Shown here one piece after another: positions 1,597-32,695 of a DNA stretch of 64,000 bases (positions are counted from its first letter, which is position 1; each line of letters begins with the position of its first letter). The position numbers and the translations under genes were made by a program. The notes under the pieces are model-generated. The model saw only the letters and a list, made by a program, of their open reading frames with translations, did no database searches and had not been told where the DNA came from. The stretch is taken from the NCBI GenBank assembly GCA_910583945.1, contig CAJTYF010000005.1:1402-65401 (forward strand), in the 5' to 3' direction. This DNA is from an uncultured Bacilli bacterium (GTDB lineage Bacteria; Bacillota_I; Bacilli_A; RF39; UBA660).

Positions 1597-2324
1597 GAAT
1601 CGAGTCTTTAGAAAATAAAAAAGTCAAAGAGTGGGCCAAATTAAAAATAAAAAAGTATCGAGATCAAAAAGGGTTATTTTTAATTGAAGGGGATCATTTA
1701 TTAAAAGAAGCTTTAAAGAAAAATTGTGTGCAAGAGATTTTGGCAAACGATGTACGATTTAAAGTAGAAGGCATACTTTTTTTTGAAGTGAGTGAAGCTA
1801 TTTTAAAAAAACTTTCAAGTCAGGACAGTGGAACAAGTGTTTTAGCGGTTTGTAAAAAACAATATTCTCATGAAATTAAAGGAAATGTGTGTATGTTGGA
1901 TGGCGTTCAAGATCCAGGAAATTTAGGGACTATTCTACGAAGTTGTGTTGCTTTTGGTATTGATACACTTGTTAGTAGTTTGGATACAGTTGATTTTTAT
2001 AACGAGAAGGTTATACGTGCTAGTGAAGGAAGCCTTTTTCATTTGAATTTATTAAAAAAAGATTTAAAAGAAATGATAAAAGAGTTAAAGAAACAAGACT
2101 ATTTTATTTATGCAACGAATGTTCATAAGGGAGCCAATATAAAAGAAATGACTCTAAAAAATAAATATGCTATAATAATGGGGAATGAAGGTAATGGTGT
2201 AGAGGAAGCAGTACAGAATTTAGCCGATGAACTTCTCTATATTCCTATGAGTGAAGGCGTAGAAAGTTTAAATGTTGGTGTGGCAACAAGTATTCTTTTA
2301 TATGAATTTTATAAGGAGGATTAG
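1593..2324 (+). CDS. TrmH/SpoU-family RNA 2'-O-methyltransferase
   Basis: SpoU motifs 'LDGVQDPGNLGTILRS', 'IIMGNEGNGV' and 'IPM..GVESLNVGVATSILLYE'. ATGA overlap with the upstream gene. Confidence 0.85.
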   Translation: MRIESLENKKVKEWAKLKIKKYRDQKGLFLIEGDHLLKEALKKNCVQEILANDVRFKVEGILFFEVSEAILKKLSSQDSGTSVLAVCKKQYSHEIKGNVCMLDGVQDPGNLGTILRSCVAFGIDTLVSSLDTVDFYNEKVIRASEGSLFHLNLLKKDLKEMIKELKKQDYFIYATNVHKGANIKEMTLKNKYAIIMGNEGNGVEEAVQNLADELLYIPMSEGVESLNVGVATSILLYEFYKED

Positions 2325-2326
2325 AT

Positions 2327-2557
2327 ATGCATAGGTATGAAAGTCGTCTATATGATCAAATTAAAGAAAGATTGATAGAAACTTATGGTTATTCTGAATT
2401 GATGGAGTTAATGGTTTTTGAGAATGAGTTAGGAAAAAATGAATTCTATATAAAAGATTGTATAAATGGTGAGATAAAAACTTTAACTGTTGTTGATTCT
2501 CAACTTATTTTTAATATAGAAATTGCTTGTTTACTCGTTGTGGAAGATAAAAGATGA
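2327..2557 (+). CDS. hypothetical small protein
   Basis: 76-aa ORF tightly packed between the methyltransferase and rimM (ATGA overlap with rimM). No family recognised. Confidence 0.4.
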   Translation: MHRYESRLYDQIKERLIETYGYSELMELMVFENELGKNEFYIKDCINGEIKTLTVVDSQLIFNIEIACLLVVEDKR

Positions 2558-3048
2558 AACAATATGTATACATAGGAAAAATTGTTAATACTCATGGCAT
2601 TAAAGGTGAAGTTCGAATTCTTTCCCATTTTGAAAAAAAGGAATTAGTTTTTAAAAATGGTATGTCTTTTTATATAGGAGAATTAAAAAATGAATTTAAA
2701 GTTGTAGATTATCGTCCTCATAAAAATTTTGATATGGTAACTTTTGAAGGCATTCAATCTATAAATGATGTACTCGTTTATAAAGGGAAAAAAGTATTTG
2801 TGAAAAGAAAGGATTTAAATCTTTTAAAAAACGATTATTTATATGAGGATTTAATAGGTTTAGCGGTTTATGATGAAGAAAAAGAGATTGGAAAGGTTTT
2901 AGAAGTTTGGAATGCTAAGGGGAACGTTTTACTTGAGGTTCAATATGAAAAAAATTATTATATTCCTTTAAAATCTGACTATATTAAAAAAATTGATTTA
3001 GAGCAGCATAAGATTATAACCTCAAAAGGAAGTGCACTTATTTTATGA
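2554..3048 (+). CDS. rimM: 16S rRNA processing protein RimM
   Basis: N-terminal 'IGKIVNTHGIKGEVRI' is the RimM signature. Lies immediately upstream of trmD, as in most bacteria. Confidence 0.9.
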   Translation: MKQYVYIGKIVNTHGIKGEVRILSHFEKKELVFKNGMSFYIGELKNEFKVVDYRPHKNFDMVTFEGIQSINDVLVYKGKKVFVKRKDLNLLKNDYLYEDLIGLAVYDEEKEIGKVLEVWNAKGNVLLEVQYEKNYYIPLKSDYIKKIDLEQHKIITSKGSALIL

Positions 3049-3707
3049 AAATTGATATTTTAACTTTATTTCCAGCGATGTTTGATGGTTTTTTAAATGA
3101 ATCCATTATTAAAAGAGCACGAGAAAAGAATTTAGTGGAAATTCGTATTATTAATTTTAGAGATTTTTCAGAGCTATCTAATCATCAAGTCGATGATACG
3201 CCTTATGGAGGCGGTGGTGGAATGGTTCTTCGTTGTGAACCTTTAGTCTGTGCCATTGAAAACCTTCGAACTCCAAAAAGTAAGGTTATCCTAATGTGCC
3301 CACAAGGAAAAAGCTTTAAAGAATCTTACGCTCAGTCTTTAGCTTTGGAAAAACATCTTATTTTGGTGTGTGGTCATTATGAAGGCTTTGATGAACGCAT
3401 TCGAGCATTTGTGGATGAAGAAATTTCGATTGGGGATTATGTATTGACGGGAGGAGAACTTCCAGCTATGGTGATTACTGATGCCATTACACGTCTACTT
3501 CCGGGAGTGATAAAAAAAGAATCATGGGAACAGGAATCCTTTCAAGAAAATTTACTAGATTATCCTACGTATACGAAACCAAGTGTGTTTAGAGGGTTAA
3601 AAGTACCAGAAGTTTTATTGAGTGGGGATCATAAAAAGATAAAAGAATGGCGTTATCAAGAGCAAGTCAAAAAAACAAAAGAAAAAAGAAATGATCTTTT
3701 AAAGTAA
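3045..3707 (+). CDS. trmD: tRNA (guanine37-N1)-methyltransferase TrmD
   Basis: 'IDILTLFPAMF', 'DDTPYGGGGGMV', 'CGHYEGFDERI' and 'SIGDYVLTGGELPAMV' are all canonical TrmD blocks. Confidence 0.95.
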   Translation: MKIDILTLFPAMFDGFLNESIIKRAREKNLVEIRIINFRDFSELSNHQVDDTPYGGGGGMVLRCEPLVCAIENLRTPKSKVILMCPQGKSFKESYAQSLALEKHLILVCGHYEGFDERIRAFVDEEISIGDYVLTGGELPAMVITDAITRLLPGVIKKESWEQESFQENLLDYPTYTKPSVFRGLKVPEVLLSGDHKKIKEWRYQEQVKKTKEKRNDLLK

Positions 3708-5008: not shown

Positions 5009-6268
5009 ATGGAAAAGAAGAAATTGTTAGTTTTTGCAAATTATTTTTATCCAGAAGTGGCTTCTACGGCTCAAATTTTGACTGAATTATGTGATGGCTT
5101 AAAAAAAGACTATGTGATTACTGTCATTTGTTCTGTTCCTTGTTATACTGGAAAAATTGAAGAAAAATATAAAAAAGAAAAATTTTATTATGAAGCGTAT
5201 AACGGGGTTAATATTCTTAGAGTTCGAGTCAAAGAATTTTCAAAAACAAGTAAAAAAAGTAGAATTTTTCATATCTTAAGCTATTTTTTTCATTCGATTG
5301 GAGCGACTTTTAAAGTTGGGAAACAAGATGTTGTTTTTGCCATTTCTCAACCACCAGTATTAGGTGGTATTCTTGGAAATATCGGGCGAATGATTACAAA
5401 AGGAAAATTTATTTATAATATTCAAGATTTTAATCCTGAACAAATTATGGCGGTCAATTATTCTAAAAATAAGTGGCTATTAAAGTTCATGCTGCTGTTT
5501 GATCAACACACATGTAAAAAGGCAAGTTTAGTGATTACTGTTGGAAGAGATATGCAAAAAACGTTAGAACATCGTTTTAAAAATAAAAAGATTCCTAATA
5601 ATAGAGTCATTAATAATTGGACAAATGAAAGTGATATTTATCCTTTAAATAAAGATCATAAAAAAGTAATGGAATTTAAGAAAAAAAACAACTTAGAAAA
5701 TAAATTTATTATTATGTATTCTGGAAATTTAGGACTTTATTATGATTTAGAAAATTTGATTCATTTGTTTTTGAATTTTAAAAATGAAAAAGAAGTTGTA
5801 TTTGCTTTGGTTGGTGAGGGGGCTCTTAAGAAAAAATTAGAGGAAATTGTACGTGAAAATCACGCTGATAATATTACTTTTATACCTTATCAAGATAAAA
5901 AAGATTTGATTTATAGTTTAAATAGTGCGGATGTGCATCTTGTTACCAATGCAAAAGGGATTAAGGGTGTTTCTGTTCCTAGTAAAATCTATGGATGTAT
6001 GGCAACAAATGTTCCGATTTTAGGCATATTAGAAAGGGGTACTGAAGCGTCTCAAATCATTAATGATTCAAAGTGTGGTGTGGTTTGTGAAACCGGTCAC
6101 TATGAAGAAATCGAAAAAAAGTTGAAAATGATTTTAAAAGAAAAAGATTCTTTTATTAAAAAGCATTTGACGGGAAGAAAGTATTTGGAAGAACATTTTA
6201 CAAAAGATAAGTCTATTAAAAAGTACAGTGAAGCGATAGAAAGTGTTTTAAATGGTGATAGAAAATGA
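5009..6268 (+). CDS. GT4-family glycosyltransferase (WcaI/WbuB-like)
   Basis: N-terminal 'KKLLVFANYFYPEVASTAQ' and a C-terminal GT-B block 'MYSGNLG...LVGEG...YGCMATNVPILG'. Confidence 0.85.
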   Translation: MEKKKLLVFANYFYPEVASTAQILTELCDGLKKDYVITVICSVPCYTGKIEEKYKKEKFYYEAYNGVNILRVRVKEFSKTSKKSRIFHILSYFFHSIGATFKVGKQDVVFAISQPPVLGGILGNIGRMITKGKFIYNIQDFNPEQIMAVNYSKNKWLLKFMLLFDQHTCKKASLVITVGRDMQKTLEHRFKNKKIPNNRVINNWTNESDIYPLNKDHKKVMEFKKKNNLENKFIIMYSGNLGLYYDLENLIHLFLNFKNEKEVVFALVGEGALKKKLEEIVRENHADNITFIPYQDKKDLIYSLNSADVHLVTNAKGIKGVSVPSKIYGCMATNVPILGILERGTEASQIINDSKCGVVCETGHYEEIEKKLKMILKEKDSFIKKHLTGRKYLEEHFTKDKSIKKYSEAIESVLNGDRK

Positions 6269-9182: not shown

Positions 9183-10587
9183 TATTAAAAAAAATTTTAT
9201 TTATAACTTAATTTATCAATTTCTAATATTATTTATTCCTTTAGTTATTTCTCCTTATATTTCGAGAGTTATGGGCGTTGAAGGCGTTGGAATTTATTCT
9301 TACACTTATTCGGTTGTTTCTTATTTTATGTTATTTGTTTTATTAGGAGTCAATAATTATGGTAATCGTATTATTGCAAAAATTAGAGATGATAAAAAAG
9401 AATTAGCTCGAACTTTTTGGGGAATTTATTTATTCCAACTATTTATGGGTTTATTCATGTTTTTTCTTTATATTGGATATATCTATTTATTCGATGTTGA
9501 ATATAAGATTATAGCTTTAATACAATCTATGTTTATCCTTTCAGCATTAGGAGATATAAATTGGGTTTTTTTTGGATTGGAAGAAATTAAAATTACAATT
9601 TTGCGAAATATTTTAATCAAAGTAGGAACATTAATTTTTATTTTTTTATTTGTTAAAGATTCGAGTGATATAGAAATATATGCAGTTATTATGTCAGGAA
9701 TGGCAATTTTTAGTCAATTATTGTTATGGTCTTTTGTAAAAAAAAAGATTGGATTTATAAAAATAAATATGAAAGAAATATTAAAGCACATAAAACCTAA
9801 TTTGATTTTATTTATTCCAGTTATTGCAATTAGCTTGTATAAAATAATGGATAAAATTATGTTGGGCATTATGTCAAATATTAGTGAAGTCGGTTTTTAT
9901 GAAAATGCTGAAAAAATAATTAATATACCATTAACCTTGATTACAGCTTTAGGAACAGTTATGCTTCCAAGAATATCCAATTTGGTGGTTAAAAGAGAAT
10001 ATAAAAAAATAAATCAATACATTCATAAGTCTATTTTATTGGTTATGTTTATGTCGCTTGCTATGTGTTTTGGTCTTATTTCAATAGGTTATAATTTTGC
10101 TCCGCTTTATTTTGGATATGAATTTCAAAAAACAGGTTTATTGATTATACTTCTTGCACCGACTTTAATTTTTTTATCTTTTGCAAATATTTTAAGGACA
10201 TTATATTTGATTCCTTATGAAAAAGATAAAATATACATTTTGTCTGTTTTTTTAGGAGCATTAGTCAATTTATTGATGAATGTTATTTTTATTCCTAAGC
10301 TTGGAAGTATAGGAGCTTGTTTAGGAACAATTATGGCTGAATTCATAGTTATGTTTTATCAAGCTTTTTTATTGAAAAAGGAACTTGAAATAAATAAGTA
10401 TATTAAAGATATTTTTCCATTTTTTGTTAAAGCTTTAATTATGTTTATTTTAATTTATCCTATTAATTTTTTGAAAATTGAAAATTTTTTGAAAATAATA
10501 ATTCAAATAGTATTTGGAATAATTATTTATTGTTTTTTTAATAAACAATATTTACTGTATTTGTTTTCTTTAAAAAAAAAATCATAA
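9175..10587 (+). CDS. Wzx-type polysaccharide flippase (MOP superfamily)
   Basis: 470 aa, 12-14 TM. N-terminal 'NLIYQFLILFIPLVISPYISRVMGVEGVGIYSY' is typical of the polysaccharide biosynthesis protein family. TTG start. Confidence 0.8.
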   Translation: MNNIKKNFIYNLIYQFLILFIPLVISPYISRVMGVEGVGIYSYTYSVVSYFMLFVLLGVNNYGNRIIAKIRDDKKELARTFWGIYLFQLFMGLFMFFLYIGYIYLFDVEYKIIALIQSMFILSALGDINWVFFGLEEIKITILRNILIKVGTLIFIFLFVKDSSDIEIYAVIMSGMAIFSQLLLWSFVKKKIGFIKINMKEILKHIKPNLILFIPVIAISLYKIMDKIMLGIMSNISEVGFYENAEKIINIPLTLITALGTVMLPRISNLVVKREYKKINQYIHKSILLVMFMSLAMCFGLISIGYNFAPLYFGYEFQKTGLLIILLAPTLIFLSFANILRTLYLIPYEKDKIYILSVFLGALVNLLMNVIFIPKLGSIGACLGTIMAEFIVMFYQAFLLKKELEINKYIKDIFPFFVKALIMFILIYPINFLKIENFLKIIIQIVFGIIIYCFFNKQYLLYLFSLKKKS

Positions 10588-26512: not shown

Positions 26513-27118
26513 ATGAAAGTAAATTATGATGTTTTAATGCAAAAAGAAATTGAAAAATTTCAAGGTAAAAAAAAGCTTTTATTGCATAGTTGTTGTGGAC
26601 CTTGTTCTTCGGCGGTTATTTTGAGATTAAAGGAATATTTTGATATTACGATTCTTTATTACAATCCTAATATCGAACCTGAAGAGGAATATATTAAAAG
26701 AAAAAATGAACAAAAAAAATTACTTGATGCTTTAGATTTGGGGATTACACTTAGAGATATTGATTACGATCATGACTCTTTTTTAAAAGTTTCTAAACAT
26801 TTAGAAACAGAACCTGAAGGTGGAGCAAGATGTCATAAATGTTATTTTTTAAGGTTACAAAAGACAGGAGAAATCGCTAGAAAAGAAGGTTTTGACTATT
26901 TTGGCACGACTTTAACGGTCAGCCCTTATAAAAATAGCGATGTAATTAATTCAATGGGATTATTGATTGAAAAAGATATGAATTTTGATATTCGTTTTTT
27001 GGTTTCAGATTTTAAGAAAAGAGAAGGCTATAAACAAAGTATTGAACTTTCTGAAAAATACCATTTATATCGTCAGGATTATTGTGGTTGTTTATTTGCA
27101 AAAGATGTCGATTCTTAA
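26513..27118 (+). CDS. queH: epoxyqueuosine reductase QueH (DUF208)
   Basis: 'LLLHSCCGPCSS', 'YNPNIEPEEEY', 'RCHKCYFLRL', 'TTLTVSPYKN' and 'YRQDYCGC' are the conserved Cys-containing QueH blocks. Confidence 0.9.
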   Translation: MKVNYDVLMQKEIEKFQGKKKLLLHSCCGPCSSAVILRLKEYFDITILYYNPNIEPEEEYIKRKNEQKKLLDALDLGITLRDIDYDHDSFLKVSKHLETEPEGGARCHKCYFLRLQKTGEIARKEGFDYFGTTLTVSPYKNSDVINSMGLLIEKDMNFDIRFLVSDFKKREGYKQSIELSEKYHLYRQDYCGCLFAKDVDS

Positions 27119-27265
27119 GAAAAGATGTCTTTTTTTAGTGTATTTTGGTATTTATAATTGATATAATTTGACATGACACGACAAAATGGTACATATTATT
27201 CGTGAAATGACTTTCCAAAAAATATTTACTATAATCTAGTTATAGTAGGAGGAGTCATAGGAAAT

Positions 27266-28396
27266 ATGAAATTAGAGAAGTTTACAAAAGGTAGTAAAAA
27301 AAGAAGTCAGGCTGTTATTTTTTTCGCTATAGCGGTTTGTTTGCTAGCGGCAGGATTTATTCTTTATCGAACGTTTGCGTTTTATGAAGAAAAAAGAGAA
27401 TTTAATGTTTTGCAAGGAAGGATTGGAGATTTTGATTATGATGTAAAGCTTGCAATAGTGGTTGATGGAGAAAAAGTAGATAAAGTACCTGAACGTGGTC
27501 TTTATAGTGTAGTAAGTACATGTAATGAAGGAGAAGCTTCAACTTGGGATTATAATGCTTGGGCACTATCTATAGAAAATATTCAAACGAATACAAAGTG
27601 TAAGGTTACTTTTACTTCAGGACTCAGTGATACAGAGTATAATAAATACATCGAAGCTGGAATTGCATTAAGAAGAAATACGTATCGAGGAAAAGATATC
27701 ACTAGTTATTATAATGATGGAAGTCTTTATACCATGATCAGTGATGGAACGTTTAAAGATATTTATGTAGGGGATTTTTTTAATGTCAATGGCGTAACAT
27801 GGCTTGTTGCGGACATCGATAATTATTTGCATAGTGGAGATCAAGATTTAACGAAACATCATGCAACGATTATCCCAGCAAAGCCATTAATGAATTTGGG
27901 AATGAATGAAACAGATACCACAGAAGGTGGGTATTATAATAGTAGAATGGCTCAAGAAACCTTACCGAGTCTAGTGGCGGCTGATGGAACAATTGGAAAA
28001 GCTTTCGGTGCTCATTTAATCGAGTATCGTAATCTGTTATCAAATCGAATTAATAAAGATACCATTAATCAAAGTGGAGGAAGATGGGTTGGAGCAAGTG
28101 ATGAATGGGGATGGTATTCAAGAAAAGCTGATTTAATGAGTGAAGTGAATGTCTATGGAACAACAGTGTGGTCATCAAGTGGCTATGATATAGGAATAGA
28201 TAATCGTCAGTATGCAATTTTTCAACTAAAACCAGAGTATATTAATAGTTATGGGACAGCAAGATTTCATTATTGGTTAAAAAGTGTCTCTGGTGCGACT
28301 AGGTTTGCTCATGTCGCCGGTAACGGGAATTCCGGCTACACCTGGGATGGCGCGTCCAACGCGTATGGTGTTCGCCCCCGCTTCCTGATCGGTTAA
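27266..28396 (+). CDS. DGR target (variable) protein: N-terminal signal-anchor, C-terminal C-type-lectin-like variable region
   Basis: TM helix 'AVIFFAIAVCLLAAGFILY'. The C-terminus 'YWLKSVSGATRFAHVAGNGNSGYTWDGASNAYGVRPRFLIG' is encoded by the VR, which matches the three downstream template repeats. Confidence 0.85.
   Translation: MKLEKFTKGSKKRSQAVIFFAIAVCLLAAGFILYRTFAFYEEKREFNVLQGRIGDFDYDVKLAIVVDGEKVDKVPERGLYSVVSTCNEGEASTWDYNAWALSIENIQTNTKCKVTFTSGLSDTEYNKYIEAGIALRRNTYRGKDITSYYNDGSLYTMISDGTFKDIYVGDFFNVNGVTWLVADIDNYLHSGDQDLTKHHATIIPAKPLMNLGMNETDTTEGGYYNSRMAQETLPSLVAADGTIGKAFGAHLIEYRNLLSNRINKDTINQSGGRWVGASDEWGWYSRKADLMSEVNVYGTTVWSSSGYDIGIDNRQYAIFQLKPEYINSYGTARFHYWLKSVSGATRFAHVAGNGNSGYTWDGASNAYGVRPRFLIG
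28285..28379 (+). repeat. DGR variable repeat (VR)
   Basis: 95 nt align without gaps to 29692-29786 (TR3). There are 12 mismatches, and 10 of them sit at template adenines. The homology core 'tctctggtgcgact...gcgtccaacgcg.atggtgttcgccccc' is shared with all three TR copies. Confidence 0.9.
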
Positions 28397-28434
28397 TCCT
28401 CAAATCTGACCCCCTTGTGGGGTCTTGAGGATTA
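28394..28434 (+). promoter_or_regulatory. nested GC-rich hairpin immediately 3' of VR (candidate DGR target-recognition cruciform and/or attenuating structure)
   Basis: 10-bp outer stem (taatcctcaa at 28394-28403 pairs with ttgaggatta at 28425-28434). 6-bp inner stem (gacccc at 28408-28413 pairs with ggggtc at 28419-28424) with a 5-nt loop. It starts at the stop codon. No T-run follows. Confidence 0.6.
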
Positions 28435-28455
28435 AAAAGAGAAGGAGGAATTTTG

Positions 28456-29016
28456 ATGAGTGTTGTAAAAAGTAAAAGAAAGCTTTCAACAATGGAGTTT
28501 TTTCATAACGCTCTTTTGTTAAGAAAGAGCGTTACGGAACTTTTGATGCGTGATTTCGGTGTAAAAGGATTCAAGCGAAATATCAAATTTGTAGGAAGTG
28601 TTGAACATTTTGAACCAGAAGATAAAATATTGGTGGAAGAAGTGTTTGAAAAATACAATATGGGTAGATGTTTTGAAGATGAATATCCTGAGTGGTTGAT
28701 TGATAAAGAAAGAGTTTATTTTTTGGATATCTTGCGAAGCTTGATAAAAAATATTGTAAAAGCGAATACAATTTATCCGGTTAATATGAATGAATATAAA
28801 GAAAGAAGAAGTTATCAAAATAATGCCATTGGGGATTGTGAAGATCTTCTTCAAGAAATGCAATATATGATTTCAATTGTTCCAGTCGATGCTGAAAAAT
28901 ATATGCAATATGTAGAAATGATTGAAAAAGAAATTGCTCTTTTGAAAGGGTGGCGAAAAGGAGATAATAAAATTGCCAGTCGATTAGAAAAGAAAAAAGA
29001 AGAGTCGAAAGACTAA
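28456..29016 (+). CDS. avd: Avd-like accessory variability determinant (basic four-helix-bundle-type protein), unusually long
   Basis: Lies between the target and the TRs. Lys/Arg-rich, predicted all-helical. Strong RBS 'ggagg' 8 nt before the ATG at 28456. The assignment rests on context plus composition, not on a motif I can name. Confidence 0.6.
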   Translation: MSVVKSKRKLSTMEFFHNALLLRKSVTELLMRDFGVKGFKRNIKFVGSVEHFEPEDKILVEEVFEKYNMGRCFEDEYPEWLIDKERVYFLDILRSLIKNIVKANTIYPVNMNEYKERRSYQNNAIGDCEDLLQEMQYMISIVPVDAEKYMQYVEMIEKEIALLKGWRKGDNKIASRLEKKKEESKD

Positions 29017-29039
29017 AAATTTGTGGTATGTAGTAGTGG

Positions 29040-29095
29040 TAATCCGTTTCAAAAATATATGAATTAAGTATAATTCAATTTGATACGGATTTTTT
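29040..29095 (+). terminator. long AT-rich hairpin plus T5 after avd (possible terminator or 5' structural part of the DGR RNA)
   Basis: aatccgt (29040-29046) pairs with acggatt (29084-29090). An inner tgaatt/aattca stem is present. Followed by ttttt at 29091-29095. Confidence 0.3.
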
Positions 29096-29132
29096 GTGTT
29101 CAAAAATATTGGATAAAATTTGTAATCTTGGT

Positions 29133-29227
29133 TGTCTCTGGTGCGACTAGGTTTGCTAATGTCAGCGATAACGGCAATTCCAACAATGGCTGGAACGCGT
29201 CCAACGCGAATGGTGTTCGCCCCCCCC
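29133..29227 (+). repeat. DGR template repeat copy 1 (TR1)
   Basis: Shares both ends with the VR. AAY-rich core 'aatgtcagcgataacggcaattccaacaatggctggaacgcgtccaacgcgaat'. One codon shorter than VR/TR3. Ends in C8. Confidence 0.8.
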
Positions 29228-29413
29228 TGATTCGATATGTTCATAGATAGTAAGACTACGAGTCGATATGAAAATATGGAAGGAAATTTTATCCATCCGA
29301 AAGGTAAAAATAAATTTTGATGTTACTAGATACGTCTAGGGTAACTAAAAACAAAATTGATGGAAGATATATTAGTTTTTTTATAGATGTTGGGTAAAGC
29401 TTGTATAGCTTAG

Positions 29414-29506
29414 TGTTCTCTGGTGCGACTCAGTTTGCTAATATAGGCGGTTGGGGTGATTCCAATAACAACTGGAGCGCGACCAACGCGAATGGTGTTC
29501 GCCCCC
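29414..29506 (+). repeat. DGR template repeat copy 2 (TR2)
   Basis: Core 'aatataggcggttggggtgattccaataacaactggagcgcgaccaacgcgaat'. The most divergent copy. One codon shorter than VR/TR3. Ends in C5. Confidence 0.75.
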
Positions 29507-29691
29507 TGATTCGATATGTTCATAGATAGTAAGACTACGAGTCGATATGAAAATATGGAAGGAAATTTTATCCGTCCGAAAGGTAAAAATAAATTTTGAT
29601 GTTTTTCTAAATACGTTTAGGAACTGTTTACAAAATAATAAAATGGATTGTTATATTAGATAAATTATGGGTAAAATTTGTAATATTGCTT

Positions 29692-29787
29692 TGTCTCTGG
29701 TGCGACTAGGTTTGCTAATGTCAACAGTAACGGTGATTCCAACAACAACTGGAATGGCGCGTCCAACGCGAATGGTGTTCGCCCCCC
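29692..29787 (+). repeat. DGR template repeat copy 3 (TR3), best cognate of the local VR
   Basis: Same length as the VR. Core 'aatgtcaacagtaacggtgattccaacaacaactggaatggcgcgtccaacgcgaat'. By hand count, 10 of its 22 adenines are substituted in the VR. Ends in C6. Confidence 0.9.
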
Positions 29788-29955
29788 TGATTCGATATGT
29801 TCATAGATAGTAAGACTACGAGTCGATATGAAAATATGGAAGGAAATTTTATCCATCCGAAAGGTAAAAATAAATTTTGATGTTACTAGATACGTCTAAG
29901 GTAACTAAAGACAAAATTAACTTAATAAATTAAGAGTTTTAAGTAGAATAGATGG

Positions 29956-29998
29956 TGAATTAAGATTTCTTTTTCCACGCAAATGAAATCTTAATTCA
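29956..29998 (+). promoter_or_regulatory. perfect 14-bp inverted repeat (15-nt loop) between the last TR cassette and the RT start
   Basis: tgaattaagatttc (29956-29969) pairs with gaaatcttaattca (29985-29998). No T-run follows. Located 62 nt upstream of the RT ATG. Confidence 0.5.
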
Positions 29999-30060
29999 AC
30001 ACCTCATATCTTGACTTTGCCTCTTTTCTACTCAAAAGTTTTAATAAAAGGTGAAAGATT

Positions 30061-31248
30061 ATGAATAAAGAAATGAAAATTTTAAGTGATGCCAATCAAT
30101 TGATTGAAGCTTTTAATCAAACTAAAAAGGAAAGTATATGGAAAGAATCTGTACAAAATTATGAAGCCAATTTACTTCGAAATACTTACTTACTAAGAAC
30201 GAGTTTAAGAGATGGGACCTATAGACAAAGAGCCTTTTATGAGTTTACTTTAAATGAAAGAGGTAAAACAAGATATGTGAAATCTATGCATATTACTGAT
30301 CGAGTTGTTCAAAGGAGTTTATGTGATAATATTTTGATTCCTAGACTTCAAAATTATTTGATTTATGATAATGGAGCGAGTCTTAAAAATAAAGGGATTG
30401 ACTTTTCTAGAAAACGATTGGAGACACATTTGCATCGTTTTTATCGAAAAAATGGAAGTAATGAGGGCTATGTTTTACTAATTGATTATAGTAAATTTTT
30501 TGATAATATTCGACATGATAAATTGGCGGAGCTTTTAGAAAAGAAGATTGATTCTCCTGAATTTATGACATTTGTGAAGCAGCTTCTTAAGACCTTTTCT
30601 ATTGATGTGTCTTATTTATCTGATGAAGAATATAAAAACTGTCTAAATAAGCTCTATAATTCTTTGGAACATTCAAAAATTGACCGAAGTTTATTAGTTG
30701 GAGAAAAAATGATGGAAAAGTCAGTAGGAATTGGAAGTCAAATTTCTCAAATATGTGGTATTTATTATCCAACAAGAATTGATAATTATTGTAAAATTGT
30801 TAAGGGCATGAAATATTATGGAAGGTATATGGATGATGTTTACGTAATTCATAAGGATAAAGAGGTATTAAAACAATTATTAAAAGAAGTGGATGAATTA
30901 TCTAAAGAATTAGGATTGTTTATTAATCAGAAAAAAACACAAATTGTTAAATTAAGACATGGTTTTACTTTTTTTAAAATTAAATATAATTTAACAGAAA
31001 GTGGGAAAGTTTTAAAACGATTAGTACCAAAAACCATTACAAGAGAAAGACGGCGACTTAAAAAGTATAAAAAATTAATGGAAGAAGGGAAAATGAGTTA
31101 TAAAGATATCGAACTTGCTTATAAGTCTTGGCGAGGAAATGCTTTAAGGTATCATGCTTATACGAGTGTTAAAAATTTAGATGCTTTGTTTGACCAACTT
31201 TATGTAAAAGAATGGAAAGGAAAGAATGAAGATGAGCTTACTTTATGA
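30061..31248 (+). CDS. DGR-type reverse transcriptase
   Basis: RT motifs 'LLIDYSKFFDNI', 'SVGIGSQISQICGIYY' (the DGR-specific I/LGxxxSQ block), 'GRYMDDVYVIH' (YxDD) and 'GLFINQKKTQIV'. RBS 'aaaggtga' before the ATG. Confidence 0.95.
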   Translation: MNKEMKILSDANQLIEAFNQTKKESIWKESVQNYEANLLRNTYLLRTSLRDGTYRQRAFYEFTLNERGKTRYVKSMHITDRVVQRSLCDNILIPRLQNYLIYDNGASLKNKGIDFSRKRLETHLHRFYRKNGSNEGYVLLIDYSKFFDNIRHDKLAELLEKKIDSPEFMTFVKQLLKTFSIDVSYLSDEEYKNCLNKLYNSLEHSKIDRSLLVGEKMMEKSVGIGSQISQICGIYYPTRIDNYCKIVKGMKYYGRYMDDVYVIHKDKEVLKQLLKEVDELSKELGLFINQKKTQIVKLRHGFTFFKIKYNLTESGKVLKRLVPKTITRERRRLKKYKKLMEEGKMSYKDIELAYKSWRGNALRYHAYTSVKNLDALFDQLYVKEWKGKNEDELTL

Positions 31249-31591
31249 TCAATATCAAAATTTAAAAGAGAGAGATAAAGACACTTATTATTTGTTTCGA
31301 AGTGGGAATTTTTATATTTTTTTAGGAGAGGATGCAGATCGTATTAACCAGTTTATGGTTTTAAAACGAACACCTTTTTGTAAAGAAACTATAAAATGTG
31401 GTTTTCCAGTAAGAAGTTTAGAGGCCTATTTAAAAGTTTTTAAAAATCATGGTCTTACGATTCGAGTTATTGAAAAGGAGGAAAAAAAGAGTATTGAACC
31501 CATTCTTAAAGATTTAAAAAAGTTGGATATTGAGGCGATTACTCCAATTAAAGCTTTAAATATTTTGAAAGAAATTAAAGATTCGCTTTAA
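31226..31591 (+). CDS. stand-alone MutS domain I-like (mismatch-binding N-terminal domain) protein, DGR accessory candidate
   Basis: 'YDQYQNLKERDKDTYYLFRSGNFYIFLGEDADRINQFM...KCGFPVRSLEAYLKVFKNHGLTIRVIEK' aligns by eye with the MutS N-terminus ('[34 protein letters not shown]...[28 protein letters not shown]'). Overlaps the RT gene by 23 nt. Confidence 0.7.
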   Translation: MKMSLLYDQYQNLKERDKDTYYLFRSGNFYIFLGEDADRINQFMVLKRTPFCKETIKCGFPVRSLEAYLKVFKNHGLTIRVIEKEEKKSIEPILKDLKKLDIEAITPIKALNILKEIKDSL

Positions 31592-31610
31592 TTAAAGGGA
31601 AAGTTTTATA

Positions 31611-31638
31611 AAAAGGCTTGCTCGCAAGTCTTTTTTTT
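31611..31638 (+). terminator. rho-independent terminator closing the DGR operon
   Basis: aaaa-ggcttg-ctcg-caagtc-tttttttt: a 6-bp stem (one G-U pair), a 4-nt loop and a T8 run. Confidence 0.75.
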
Positions 31639-31765
31639 GCTAAAATACAAGTGGCTAAAAAATTAGCAAATAAACATGTGAAAGGGATTAAAGTTATCGA
31701 GTGCCGAAGAGGTGATAGGTTTAAGAAGATCTTTTACAGATGTATAACGAAGGGAGAAATGATTT

Positions 31766-32695
31766 ATGGCCGTTGTTTCTATGGGATATTTATTAGAAGC
31801 AGGAGTTCATTTTGGACATCAAACCAAAAGATGGAATCCAAAAATGAAGCAATATATTTTTGCAGCAAGAGATGAAATACATATTATTGATTTACAAAAA
31901 ACAGTAGAAAAATTAGAAGAGGCGTATGCCGAAGTTAAGTCTATTGCAGATAATGGAGGTACTTTCTTATTTGTAGGGACTAAAAAGCAAGCCAGTGAAG
32001 TATGTAGTGAAGAAGCGATTCGTAGTAATAGTTACTATGTTTGTGAAAGATGGCTTGGTGGAACTTTAACAAATTTTAGAACGATTAGAAGAAGAGTAAA
32101 ACGTCTTGAAGAAATTGAAGCAATGGAAACAAATGGTGTTTTCGAAGTTTTACCGAAAAAAGAAGTTATTGGTTTAAAGAAGGAATATGATAAATTAAAC
32201 CGTGTGTTATGTGGTATAAGAGAAATGAATAAATTACCACAAGCGATTATTATTGTGGATCCTAAAAAAGAAATTAATGCAATAAGAGAAGCTAGAAAAT
32301 TAAATATACCTGTTTTTGGTATAGTGGATACGAATTGTGATCCAGATGATGTTGACTATCCGATTCCAGCAAATGATGATGCAGTTCGAGCTGTAAAAGT
32401 CGTGATTGGTGTTTTAAACAATGCGATTTGTGAGTCAAGAGGACTTGAAATGGTTGATTATGTAACCGAAGATGATAAGAGCAAATCTGTGACTTCTATG
32501 CCAACTGATATATCTGTTAAACCTACTAAAGAAGAAAATGGAGAAAAAAAGGTTCGTAAAGAACAAGAAAATACTTCTAAAGAAAAAGATTATGAAAGTT
32601 TAAATTTATCTGAACTTAAAAATATAGCTCGTGAACAAGGTGTTAAGGGTTATTCTACAATGAAAAAAGAAGAAATTATTAGTCAATTAAAATAA
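31766..32695 (+). CDS. rpsB: 30S ribosomal protein S2 with a C-terminal Rho_N/SAP-like extension
   Basis: '[19 protein letters not shown]', 'FVGTKKQA', '[10 protein letters not shown]' and 'VDTNCDPD' are canonical S2. About 75 extra C-terminal residues end in '[31 protein letters not shown]'. Confidence 0.95.

Follow-up and report, generated by a model that had tools for sequence, protein, structure and literature searches.

What might a fragment of MutS, a protein of mismatch repair, be doing directly behind the reverse transcriptase (RT) gene of a diversity-generating retroelement (DGR)? The question is raised by a stretch of 64,000 nucleotides from an uncultured Bacilli bacterium (assembly GCA_910583945.1, contig CAJTYF010000005.1, positions 1,402 to 65,401), hereafter the window, in which all positions are counted from the first letter. 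An open reading frame (ORF) on its + strand, at 31226-31591 (121 aa), overlaps the 3' end of the RT gene (30061-31248). An earlier reading, made from the sequence alone, had interpreted this ORF as a protein that consists only of the mismatch-binding domain I of MutS and is translationally coupled to the RT, and had proposed a profile search, structure prediction, co-occurrence statistics and the ratio of nonsynonymous to synonymous substitution rates (dN/dS) as checks. The analysis described here indicates that the gene very probably encodes one of the MSL (MutS-like) proteins that are already published as DGR accessory proteins. What it adds is a further case of a known kind and not a new system.

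A MutS domain I with a modified wedge motif

By sequence and by modelled structure, the ORF is a genuine homologue of MutS domain I, which bears out the homology that had been seen by eye. The fold comprises aa 6-89 (31247-31498, + strand), as delimited by Pfam, AlphaFold2 (AF2), Foldseek and motif counts within the family. Pfam MutS_I was matched with an E-value of 1.7e-12 and a score of 48 bits, against a gathering score of 20.6, NCBIfam mutS1 was matched with an E-value of 6e-13, and in a profile search of the PDB the only significant matches were the N-termini of MutS proteins. The AF2 model of MSL, which was built on 28 homologues, had a mean predicted local distance difference test score (pLDDT) of 89.5 and showed the fold of MutS domain I. 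When this model was compared with the PDB using Foldseek, the top 50 matches were all chains of MutS, MSH3 or related proteins, and most of the alignments had a root mean square deviation of 1.5-2 Å with 74-90 aligned columns. The profile search and the structure prediction that had been proposed as checks both turned out in favour of the earlier assignment.

The wedge motif of MSL reads GNFYI, with Phe27 (31310-31312) at the position of Phe36 of E. coli MutS and Ile29 (31316-31318) at that of Glu38, exactly the retention and the replacement that had been read before. A G-x-F-[YF] motif is present in 174 of 186 sequences of the MSL family, and in nearly all of these 174 the position of Glu38 is occupied by Ile, Leu or Val, with Glu being found in none of them. 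In published work on MutS, specific DNA binding depended on Phe36, and Glu38 was needed to discriminate mismatches and to couple to the ATPase (PMC3848065). The E38A, E38Q and E38T variants of MutS still crystallise on a G.T mismatch (PDB 1wbb, 1wbd and 1wb9).

The lack of an ATPase and of a clamp domain, which had also been noted, is evident from the match to mutS1, which is restricted to the N-terminal ~85 residues (model positions 5-88 of 840). Domains II-V are absent, and the protein ends at 119 aa. The MutS proteins of E. coli and Thermus aquaticus resemble MSL in domain I, which superposes at 1.6-1.9 Å, and in the Gly-x-Phe-Tyr wedge, but in contrast to MSL they have Glu38, the connector, the lever, the clamp and the ABC ATPase. 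Because all of these are missing, MSL would be incapable of forming a canonical sliding clamp or of binding MutL in the canonical manner, and it is not a mismatch-repair MutS.

A C-terminal tail resembling the end of MutS

The earlier description of the protein as "domain-I-only" holds for the lack of domains II-V, but not for the "only", because domain I is followed, after a short linker, by a tail that resembles the C-terminal domain (CTD) of MutS. A helix-loop-helix at aa 89-118 (31496-31585, + strand), with helices at 89-96 and 105-118 in the AF2 model, makes up this tail, and the last ~30 aa are colinear with residues 823-852 at the very end of E. coli MutS, which are part of the oligomerisation domain. 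In hhalign, a profile of 119 MSL family sequences matched the E. coli CTD with a probability of 87.7% and an E-value of 3.4e-6; the isolated CTD chain 3zlj_C gave an E-value of 0.78 with the MSL profile, and the precomputed Pfam annotation PF27441 MutS_C is present on four MSL homologues. The pattern of the family, LD-x-D-x-x-TP-x-x-AL-x-x-L-x-x-LK, compares with LDPDSLTPRQALEWIYRLK in E. coli MutS, and the LD-x-D-x-x-TP-x-x-AL helix-loop-helix is terminal in both proteins. The equivalent of Pro839 is invariant in 28 close homologues, and the equivalent of Asp835 is acidic, being Glu101 in the MSL of the window and Asp in most homologues. The isolated CTD of E. coli MutS is an autonomous oligomerisation module, the tetramers of which, but not the dimers, are broken by D835R (PMC1636413), and PDB entry 6i5f describes P839E as a dimer mutant.

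Translation start and conservation of the gene

All 28 aligned homologues begin with "MS...", which corresponds to the second in-frame ATG of the ORF (31232), and a Shine-Dalgarno-like purine run (GGAAAGGAAAG, 31214-31224) is located ~8-10 nt 5' of this ATG. Because the homologues start at this codon and the purine run is suitably spaced, the MSL gene probably extends from 31232 to 31591 on the + strand, encodes 119 aa and overlaps by 17 nt with the RT gene, the stop codon of which is the TGA at 31246-31248. The alternative start at 31226 would yield the 121 aa and the overlap of 23 nt that had been reported, so that the ORF and its overlap stand, and only the extent of the overlap is to be revised.

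The dN/dS ratio was 0.09-0.23 in comparisons with orthologues of 77-89% identity and thus not near 1, and by this measure the ORF is under purifying selection and not spurious, in agreement with the earlier reading. Homologues that agree with it in length and architecture are numerous, 37 being close and more than 1,800 distant. An exhaustive profile search returned 1,888 cluster representatives with E-values of 1e-3 or better, the best 150 of which are almost all 100-145 aa long and matched the profile end to end. The nearest relative is annotated by NCBI as a hypothetical protein.

The search of representatives also revealed a giant protein, P0126 (2323 aa), that is quite unlike the small MSL proteins. 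It contains five MutS_I-like stretches, one of which was inspected; it reads SGGFYHTYEEDAKRA and has His at the position of Glu38.

The DGR operon of the window

MSL is the last gene of a DGR operon, all features of which are on the + strand. A promoter region 3' of queH (27162-27235), which is conserved in loci lacking the RT, is composed of a ~50-nt element (27162-27211), a -35 box (ATGACT), a 17-nt spacer and a -10 box (TATAAT; 27207-27235). It is followed by the target gene (27266-28396, 376 aa), the 3' end of which holds the variable repeat (VR, ~28285-28379), by an Avd-type accessory gene (28453-29016, 186-187 aa), by three tandem units of ~280 nt (29102-29918), each made up of a template repeat (TR) and a conserved downstream segment of ~140 nt, by the RT gene (30061-31248, 395 aa; Pfam RVT_1, E-value 1.8e-15), by MSL and by a terminator-like hairpin between MSL and rpsB (31610-31638). 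The cassette thus contains what defines a DGR, an RT and a TR/VR pair with adenine-specific differences.

The 186-aa Avd-like protein matched PHROG 3206, "Avd protein of DGR", with an E-value of 1.9e-7 over aa 93-183, and had no match in Pfam or NCBIfam; with the same two databases, no match to HRDC was found among the cassette proteins scanned. The hhalign comparison of the Avd-like family with the bAvd of other MSL-bearing DGRs was not significant (probability 0.5%), and it was PHROGs that settled the identity as Avd.

Relation to the known MSL family

Wu et al. 2018 (PMC5758913) distinguished four classes of DGR accessory genes, and MSL is one of them. MSL genes were found in 16 of 372 DGRs, coded for proteins of 112-283 aa, and occurred always together with avd and never with HRDC, which was termed Architecture D (PMC5758913). 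The small MutS-like ORFs that the sequence-only reading had mentioned from DGR surveys are the MSL genes of this article. The gene of the window has the features described there, i.e. a length of 119 or 121 aa, homology to MutS, and a location in a DGR cassette with avd and without a match to HRDC; its computed isoelectric point of 9.0 is at the upper edge, about one standard deviation above the mean of published MSL proteins (7.2 ± 1.7). It differs from the published examples in its place behind an RT gene, overlapping with it, and this RT comes from a lineage in which MSL is usually missing. In addition, three DGR RTs carry a fused C-terminal MutS_I motif (PMC5758913). Such fusions are equivalent to the RT-MSL overlap, as MutS domain I is joined to a DGR RT, but they are single proteins, whereas the genes in the window are separate with a 17-nt overlap. 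In the passages of Wu et al. 2018 that were consulted, no mention was found of a CTD-like tail, of orphan copies or of Glu38 being lost throughout the family.

Msl is also present in three Bacteroides DGRs, Bfr, Bth and Bun (Macadangdang et al. 2024 preprint, 10.1101/2024.11.15.621889). In contrast to the DGR of the window, which belongs to an uncultured member of the Bacilli, these are DGRs of Bacteroidota, and the Bacteroides targets are pilus tips. Deletion of the host mutS raised retrohoming 5-10 fold, in an all-or-none manner, in the Bacteroides DGR Bov, which is devoid of Msl (10.1101/2024.11.15.621889). In E. coli, engineered DGRs are operated in cells from which mutS was deleted or together with a dominant-negative MutL, and in a 2026 preprint MutS-like homologues are given as the reason for using dominant-negative MutL in an engineered DGR.

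Linkage of MSL to DGRs

A DGR RT was found within ~2 kb of MSL in ~14 of ~18 distinct MSL lineages that were sampled and had usable flanks, and thus the co-occurrence that had been suggested as a check was indeed observed. Two layouts prevail among the loci of relatives, which are labelled with L numbers. The order RT-MSL, usually with overlapping genes, is found in the clade of the window, L039, L046 and L047, and with a gap in L041, and the order MSL-Avd-RT is found in L004-7, L021-24, L027-31, L033-35 and L037. At the RT/MSL junction, the genes of the window clade share 17 nt and those of L046, L047 and L039 share 20, 4 and ~14 nt, respectively, whereas the two genes are separated by 20 nt in L041. 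Tight coupling of RT and MSL therefore seems to be typical but not fixed, and the earlier claim of coupling is supported with regard to the common operon and the overlap with the RT, but not as a constant property.

Between the window and L007, a locus with the layout MSL-bAvd-RT, the MSL proteins share 64% identity, but the RTs share only 32% and the Avds are not detectably similar, so that the MSL of the window has its closest relatives in a different DGR lineage. Within the MSL-Avd-RT group, the identities of MSL and RT track each other. These comparisons suggest that the association is modular and that MSL was recruited across RT lineages. A metagenome scan with a narrower MSL alignment yielded 13 loci. 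Among the IMG/VR phage contigs no close relative of MSL was found, and a distant subgroup was present in two loci only; it should be noted that the scan patterns were narrow, so that this absence is only suggestive.

Three further arrangements were observed around MSL or its position. In L042 (6172-6405) and L043 (6172-6408), which are prophage tail-fibre DGRs with an RT of the window lineage, an ORF of 77-78 aa belonging to PHROG 17180 overlaps the 3' end of the RT gene and occupies the position of MSL; it may be an alternative accessory gene. In L039 (1238-3758), an MSL-like ORF is present on either side of a distant DGR RT (2297-3316), and the one downstream overlaps the end of the RT gene. 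In L020 (1081-3133), two ORFs on the minus strand (246 and 450 aa) are located between MSL and a target-like gene, the product of which is 50% identical to the target of the window; they look like an insertion into a DGR cassette, and the contig ends before any RT.

MSL without a neighbouring DGR

In two related groups of genomes (L001-3/L019 and L013-15), MSL was found without RT, Avd or target within +/-8 kb, and the locus is the same as in the window, divIB-queH-...-rpsB-tsf-frr. The adjacency of MSL and RT that had been stated for the window is thus real there, but does not extend to these orphan copies. The ~50-nt element of the promoter region is 84-86% identical and is located directly 5' of MSL in L001 (~5707-5751) and L013 (~3626-3676), and the same spacing of -35 and -10 boxes precedes MSL itself in these two loci, whereas in the window it precedes the target gene. 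The dN/dS ratio of the orphan MSL is 0.076 at a dS of ~1.4.

The identities of MSL mirror those of RpsB, Tsf and QueH, and the tree of the locus is ((window, L008, L011), (L041, (L001, L013))). A single loss of the DGR in the branch leading to L001 and L013 would be the most parsimonious explanation, in comparison with repeated insertion at the same nucleotide position. In L001 and L013, searches with tblastn and blastn around MSL detected the shared promoter element but no remnants of RT, Avd or target, and therefore loss and insertion are indistinguishable by relics.

The orphan MSL is followed by unrelated small genes, either a 121-aa membrane-like ORF or a 270-aa ORF, and then by a conserved ORF of 73 aa. 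In L001, a gene 3' of tsf (9458-10519) encodes a protein of 353 aa that is 40% identical to the N-terminal ~130 aa of the DGR target of the window and has no VR-like C-terminus.

A proposed role of MSL in retrohoming

According to recent work, the host MutS erases most retrohoming events, and MSL is the sole DGR accessory protein with an ancestry that points directly at the fixation of cDNA information into the target. It is proposed here, at a little under an even chance of being correct, that MSL is an oligomeric, non-signalling mismatch binder that shields the heteroduplex of cDNA and VR from host mismatch repair. MSL would oligomerise via its CTD-like C-terminal helices, and the Phe wedge would seat it on the densely mismatched cDNA:VR heteroduplex of mutagenic retrohoming. 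Being devoid of Glu38 and of the ATPase, it would neither turn into a sliding clamp nor recruit MutL, and it would, as a static occupant, prevent the parental VR from being restored by the host MutS. The same end might be reached in another way, with MSL poisoning the oligomers of the host MutS via the shared C-terminal module. That MSL occurs together with unrelated RT lineages and also persists where no DGR is adjacent suggests that it acts on DNA or on a host factor and not on one specific RT. The RT-MutS_I fusions would put the domain where cDNA is synthesised or integrated. Binding and shielding of the heteroduplex are consistent with the present evidence and with the 5-10 fold lowering of retrohoming by MutS.

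Several points weigh against this proposal. No full-length MutS is encoded in the 64-kb window, and in a host without mismatch repair the shield model would fail. The retrohoming of BPP-1 does not require MutS (PMC5758913). The similarity of the MSL tail to the CTD of MutS is moderate, and the second-domain alignments of the tail in HMMER are weak and not significant alone. In the literature examined, no experiment on MSL itself was found, and the statement of the sequence-only reading that no mechanism had been shown agrees with what is reported there. Furthermore, the RT lineage of the window is very large, with thousands of homologues at identities of at least 60%, and close relatives of the RT do without MSL, namely two at 60-63% identity in prophage baseplate/tail-fibre modules and one at 75% identity at a chromosomal der-lexA site; therefore, MSL seems not to be essential to this type of DGR. 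The absence of the ORF from orthologous DGRs, together with a lack of conservation, had been named beforehand as an outcome that would speak against the earlier reading; the nearest DGRs of the same RT lineage outside of the host clade are indeed without MSL, but the ORF itself is conserved. Lastly, the orphan MSL appears to have been kept for a long time without an adjacent DGR, which suggests that its role is not strictly tied to a neighbouring one.

A broader version would accommodate the orphan copies from the outset: MSL might be a portable, RT-agnostic "mini-MutS", a standing gene the product of which oligomerises by its tail, possibly mixes with the host MutS via this tail, and blunts repair locally or conditionally, which would allow any DGR, whether next to it or at another place in the genome, to fix its mutations. 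The orphans would then be functional modulators that act in trans or independently of DGRs, and not relics. This extension is speculative and rather unlikely to be correct as a whole.

The Phe wedge, a CTD-like tail able to pair with the CTD of the host MutS, and the strong linkage of MSL to DGRs would equally fit a positive function, in which MSL senses or recruits: it would recognise the cDNA:VR heteroduplex, the tail would tether the host MutS or another host factor, and by repair or replication the cDNA strand instead of the parental strand would become fixed. However, the host MutS lowers retrohoming where this was tested, and BPP-1 needs no MutS. Moreover, MSL is devoid of the connector and ATPase regions by which MutS engages MutL. 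A sensor or recruiter is therefore regarded as unlikely.

It might also be argued that MSL is a resident chromosomal gene with a job of its own, e.g. as a modulator of mismatch repair or recombination, and that the DGR merely came to lie upstream of it. This would explain why MSL stands alone between queH and rpsB in related genomes, with the same promoter and no RT within +/-8 kb, why the orphan copies are under strong purifying selection (dN/dS 0.076), why the identities of MSL track those of RpsB, Tsf and QueH as in vertical inheritance, and why the RT lineage of the window occurs elsewhere without MSL. However, most of the sampled members of the MSL family reside in DGR cassettes, in at least two architectures and in several phyla. 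In five sublineages the genes of RT and MSL overlap or adjoin each other, and the two diverge in a correlated manner, with MSL/RT identities of 89/95, 77/87, 65/78, 62/79 and 55/71%. In addition, the tree of the locus is explained more simply by losing the DGR once on the way to L001 and L013 than by several insertions at one nucleotide position, and the genomes without an RT at this locus may carry a DGR elsewhere. A function that is wholly independent of the DGR thus seems quite unlikely.

A subunit of the RT-Avd-RNA particle is a further conceivable role, in which MSL would aid cDNA synthesis, for example by holding mismatched A:N primer-template ends within the RNA:DNA hybrid for extension by the error-prone RT. 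The overlapping reading frames suggest stoichiometric co-expression, and RT-MutS_I fusions exist. However, MSL is common to RT lineages that are only ~30% identical and is absent from close relatives of the RT of the window, which argues against a co-evolved contact with the RT. Characterised RT-Avd systems such as BPP-1 make adenine-mutagenised cDNA without MSL, which also counts against this role. Shielding is favoured over a role in the RT particle because of the cost that MutS imposes on retrohoming, the indifference of MSL to the RT lineage and its rarity in the scanned phage contigs, and a particle subunit is considered quite improbable. Finally, the notion of a spurious overlap ORF, for which only the small size would speak, is ruled out by the homologues, dN/dS ratios of ~0.1-0.2 and the confident fold, its likelihood being practically nil.

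The retention of Phe, the loss of Glu throughout the family and the CTD-like tail turn a vague idea into concrete, testable handles, and the modular recruitment across RT lineages and the orphan copies under selection provide further ones. The suppression of repair by mutS deletion or by the dominant-negative MutL E32K, which is applied in DGR and retron editing, has the same goal as the one proposed for MSL, but it is global and acts via a different protein, whereas MSL would serve as a decoy of natural origin that the element itself encodes. In view of the modular, RT-independent distribution of MSL, engineered DGR or retron editors could be equipped with it, and it might replace mutS deletion as a small natural alternative.

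Further features of the retroelement

Promoter-like sites were called at 27168-27235. The ~50-nt element (27162-27211) contains two direct repeats, approximately C[AG]TG[AG]A[AC][TC]GAC and ~31 nt apart, and abuts the -35 box; it may be an operator that controls the operon. At the other end, the hairpin at 31610-31638 was predicted from the centroid fold and comprises an A-tract, a GGCUUGC-UCGC-GCAAGUC stem and a U-run. The z-score of the whole segment was not significant, and a consensus terminator scan did not list the hairpin. A scan of positions 27000-32000 with Rfam yielded no family, and the base composition showed no discontinuity among the DGR cassette, MSL and the flanks.

The three TR units were recognised as repeat families D1-D7 and by end-motif searches, and a repeat search placed the TRs on the + strand at ~29133-29227 (TR1), ~29415-29506 (TR2) and 29692-29786 (TR3). 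A second VR was not found within the window by end-motif searches. TR3 is the best match of the VR (87%), and the whole alignment of the two contains 13 mismatches at adenines of the TR and 13 elsewhere, 11 of the latter being located in the flanks beyond the core of the repeat. The two non-adenine differences inside the core are in GGGAAT of the VR (28339-28344) versus GGTGAT of TR3 (29746-29751), where TR1 has GGCAAT. They hint at drift of the TR or at templating by different TR units over time. TR3 is longer by 3 nt than either TR1 or TR2, both of which deviate from it at positions other than adenines.

Strains differ in how many TR units they have. Units were counted by the motif at the 3' end of TR and VR, and wherever the contig includes the target gene, one copy was attributed to the VR. 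Three copies of the motif were found in L016, in which the VR is not placeable, and the counts in the other loci are about one unit in L017, two in L008, three in the window and in L010, and four in L009.

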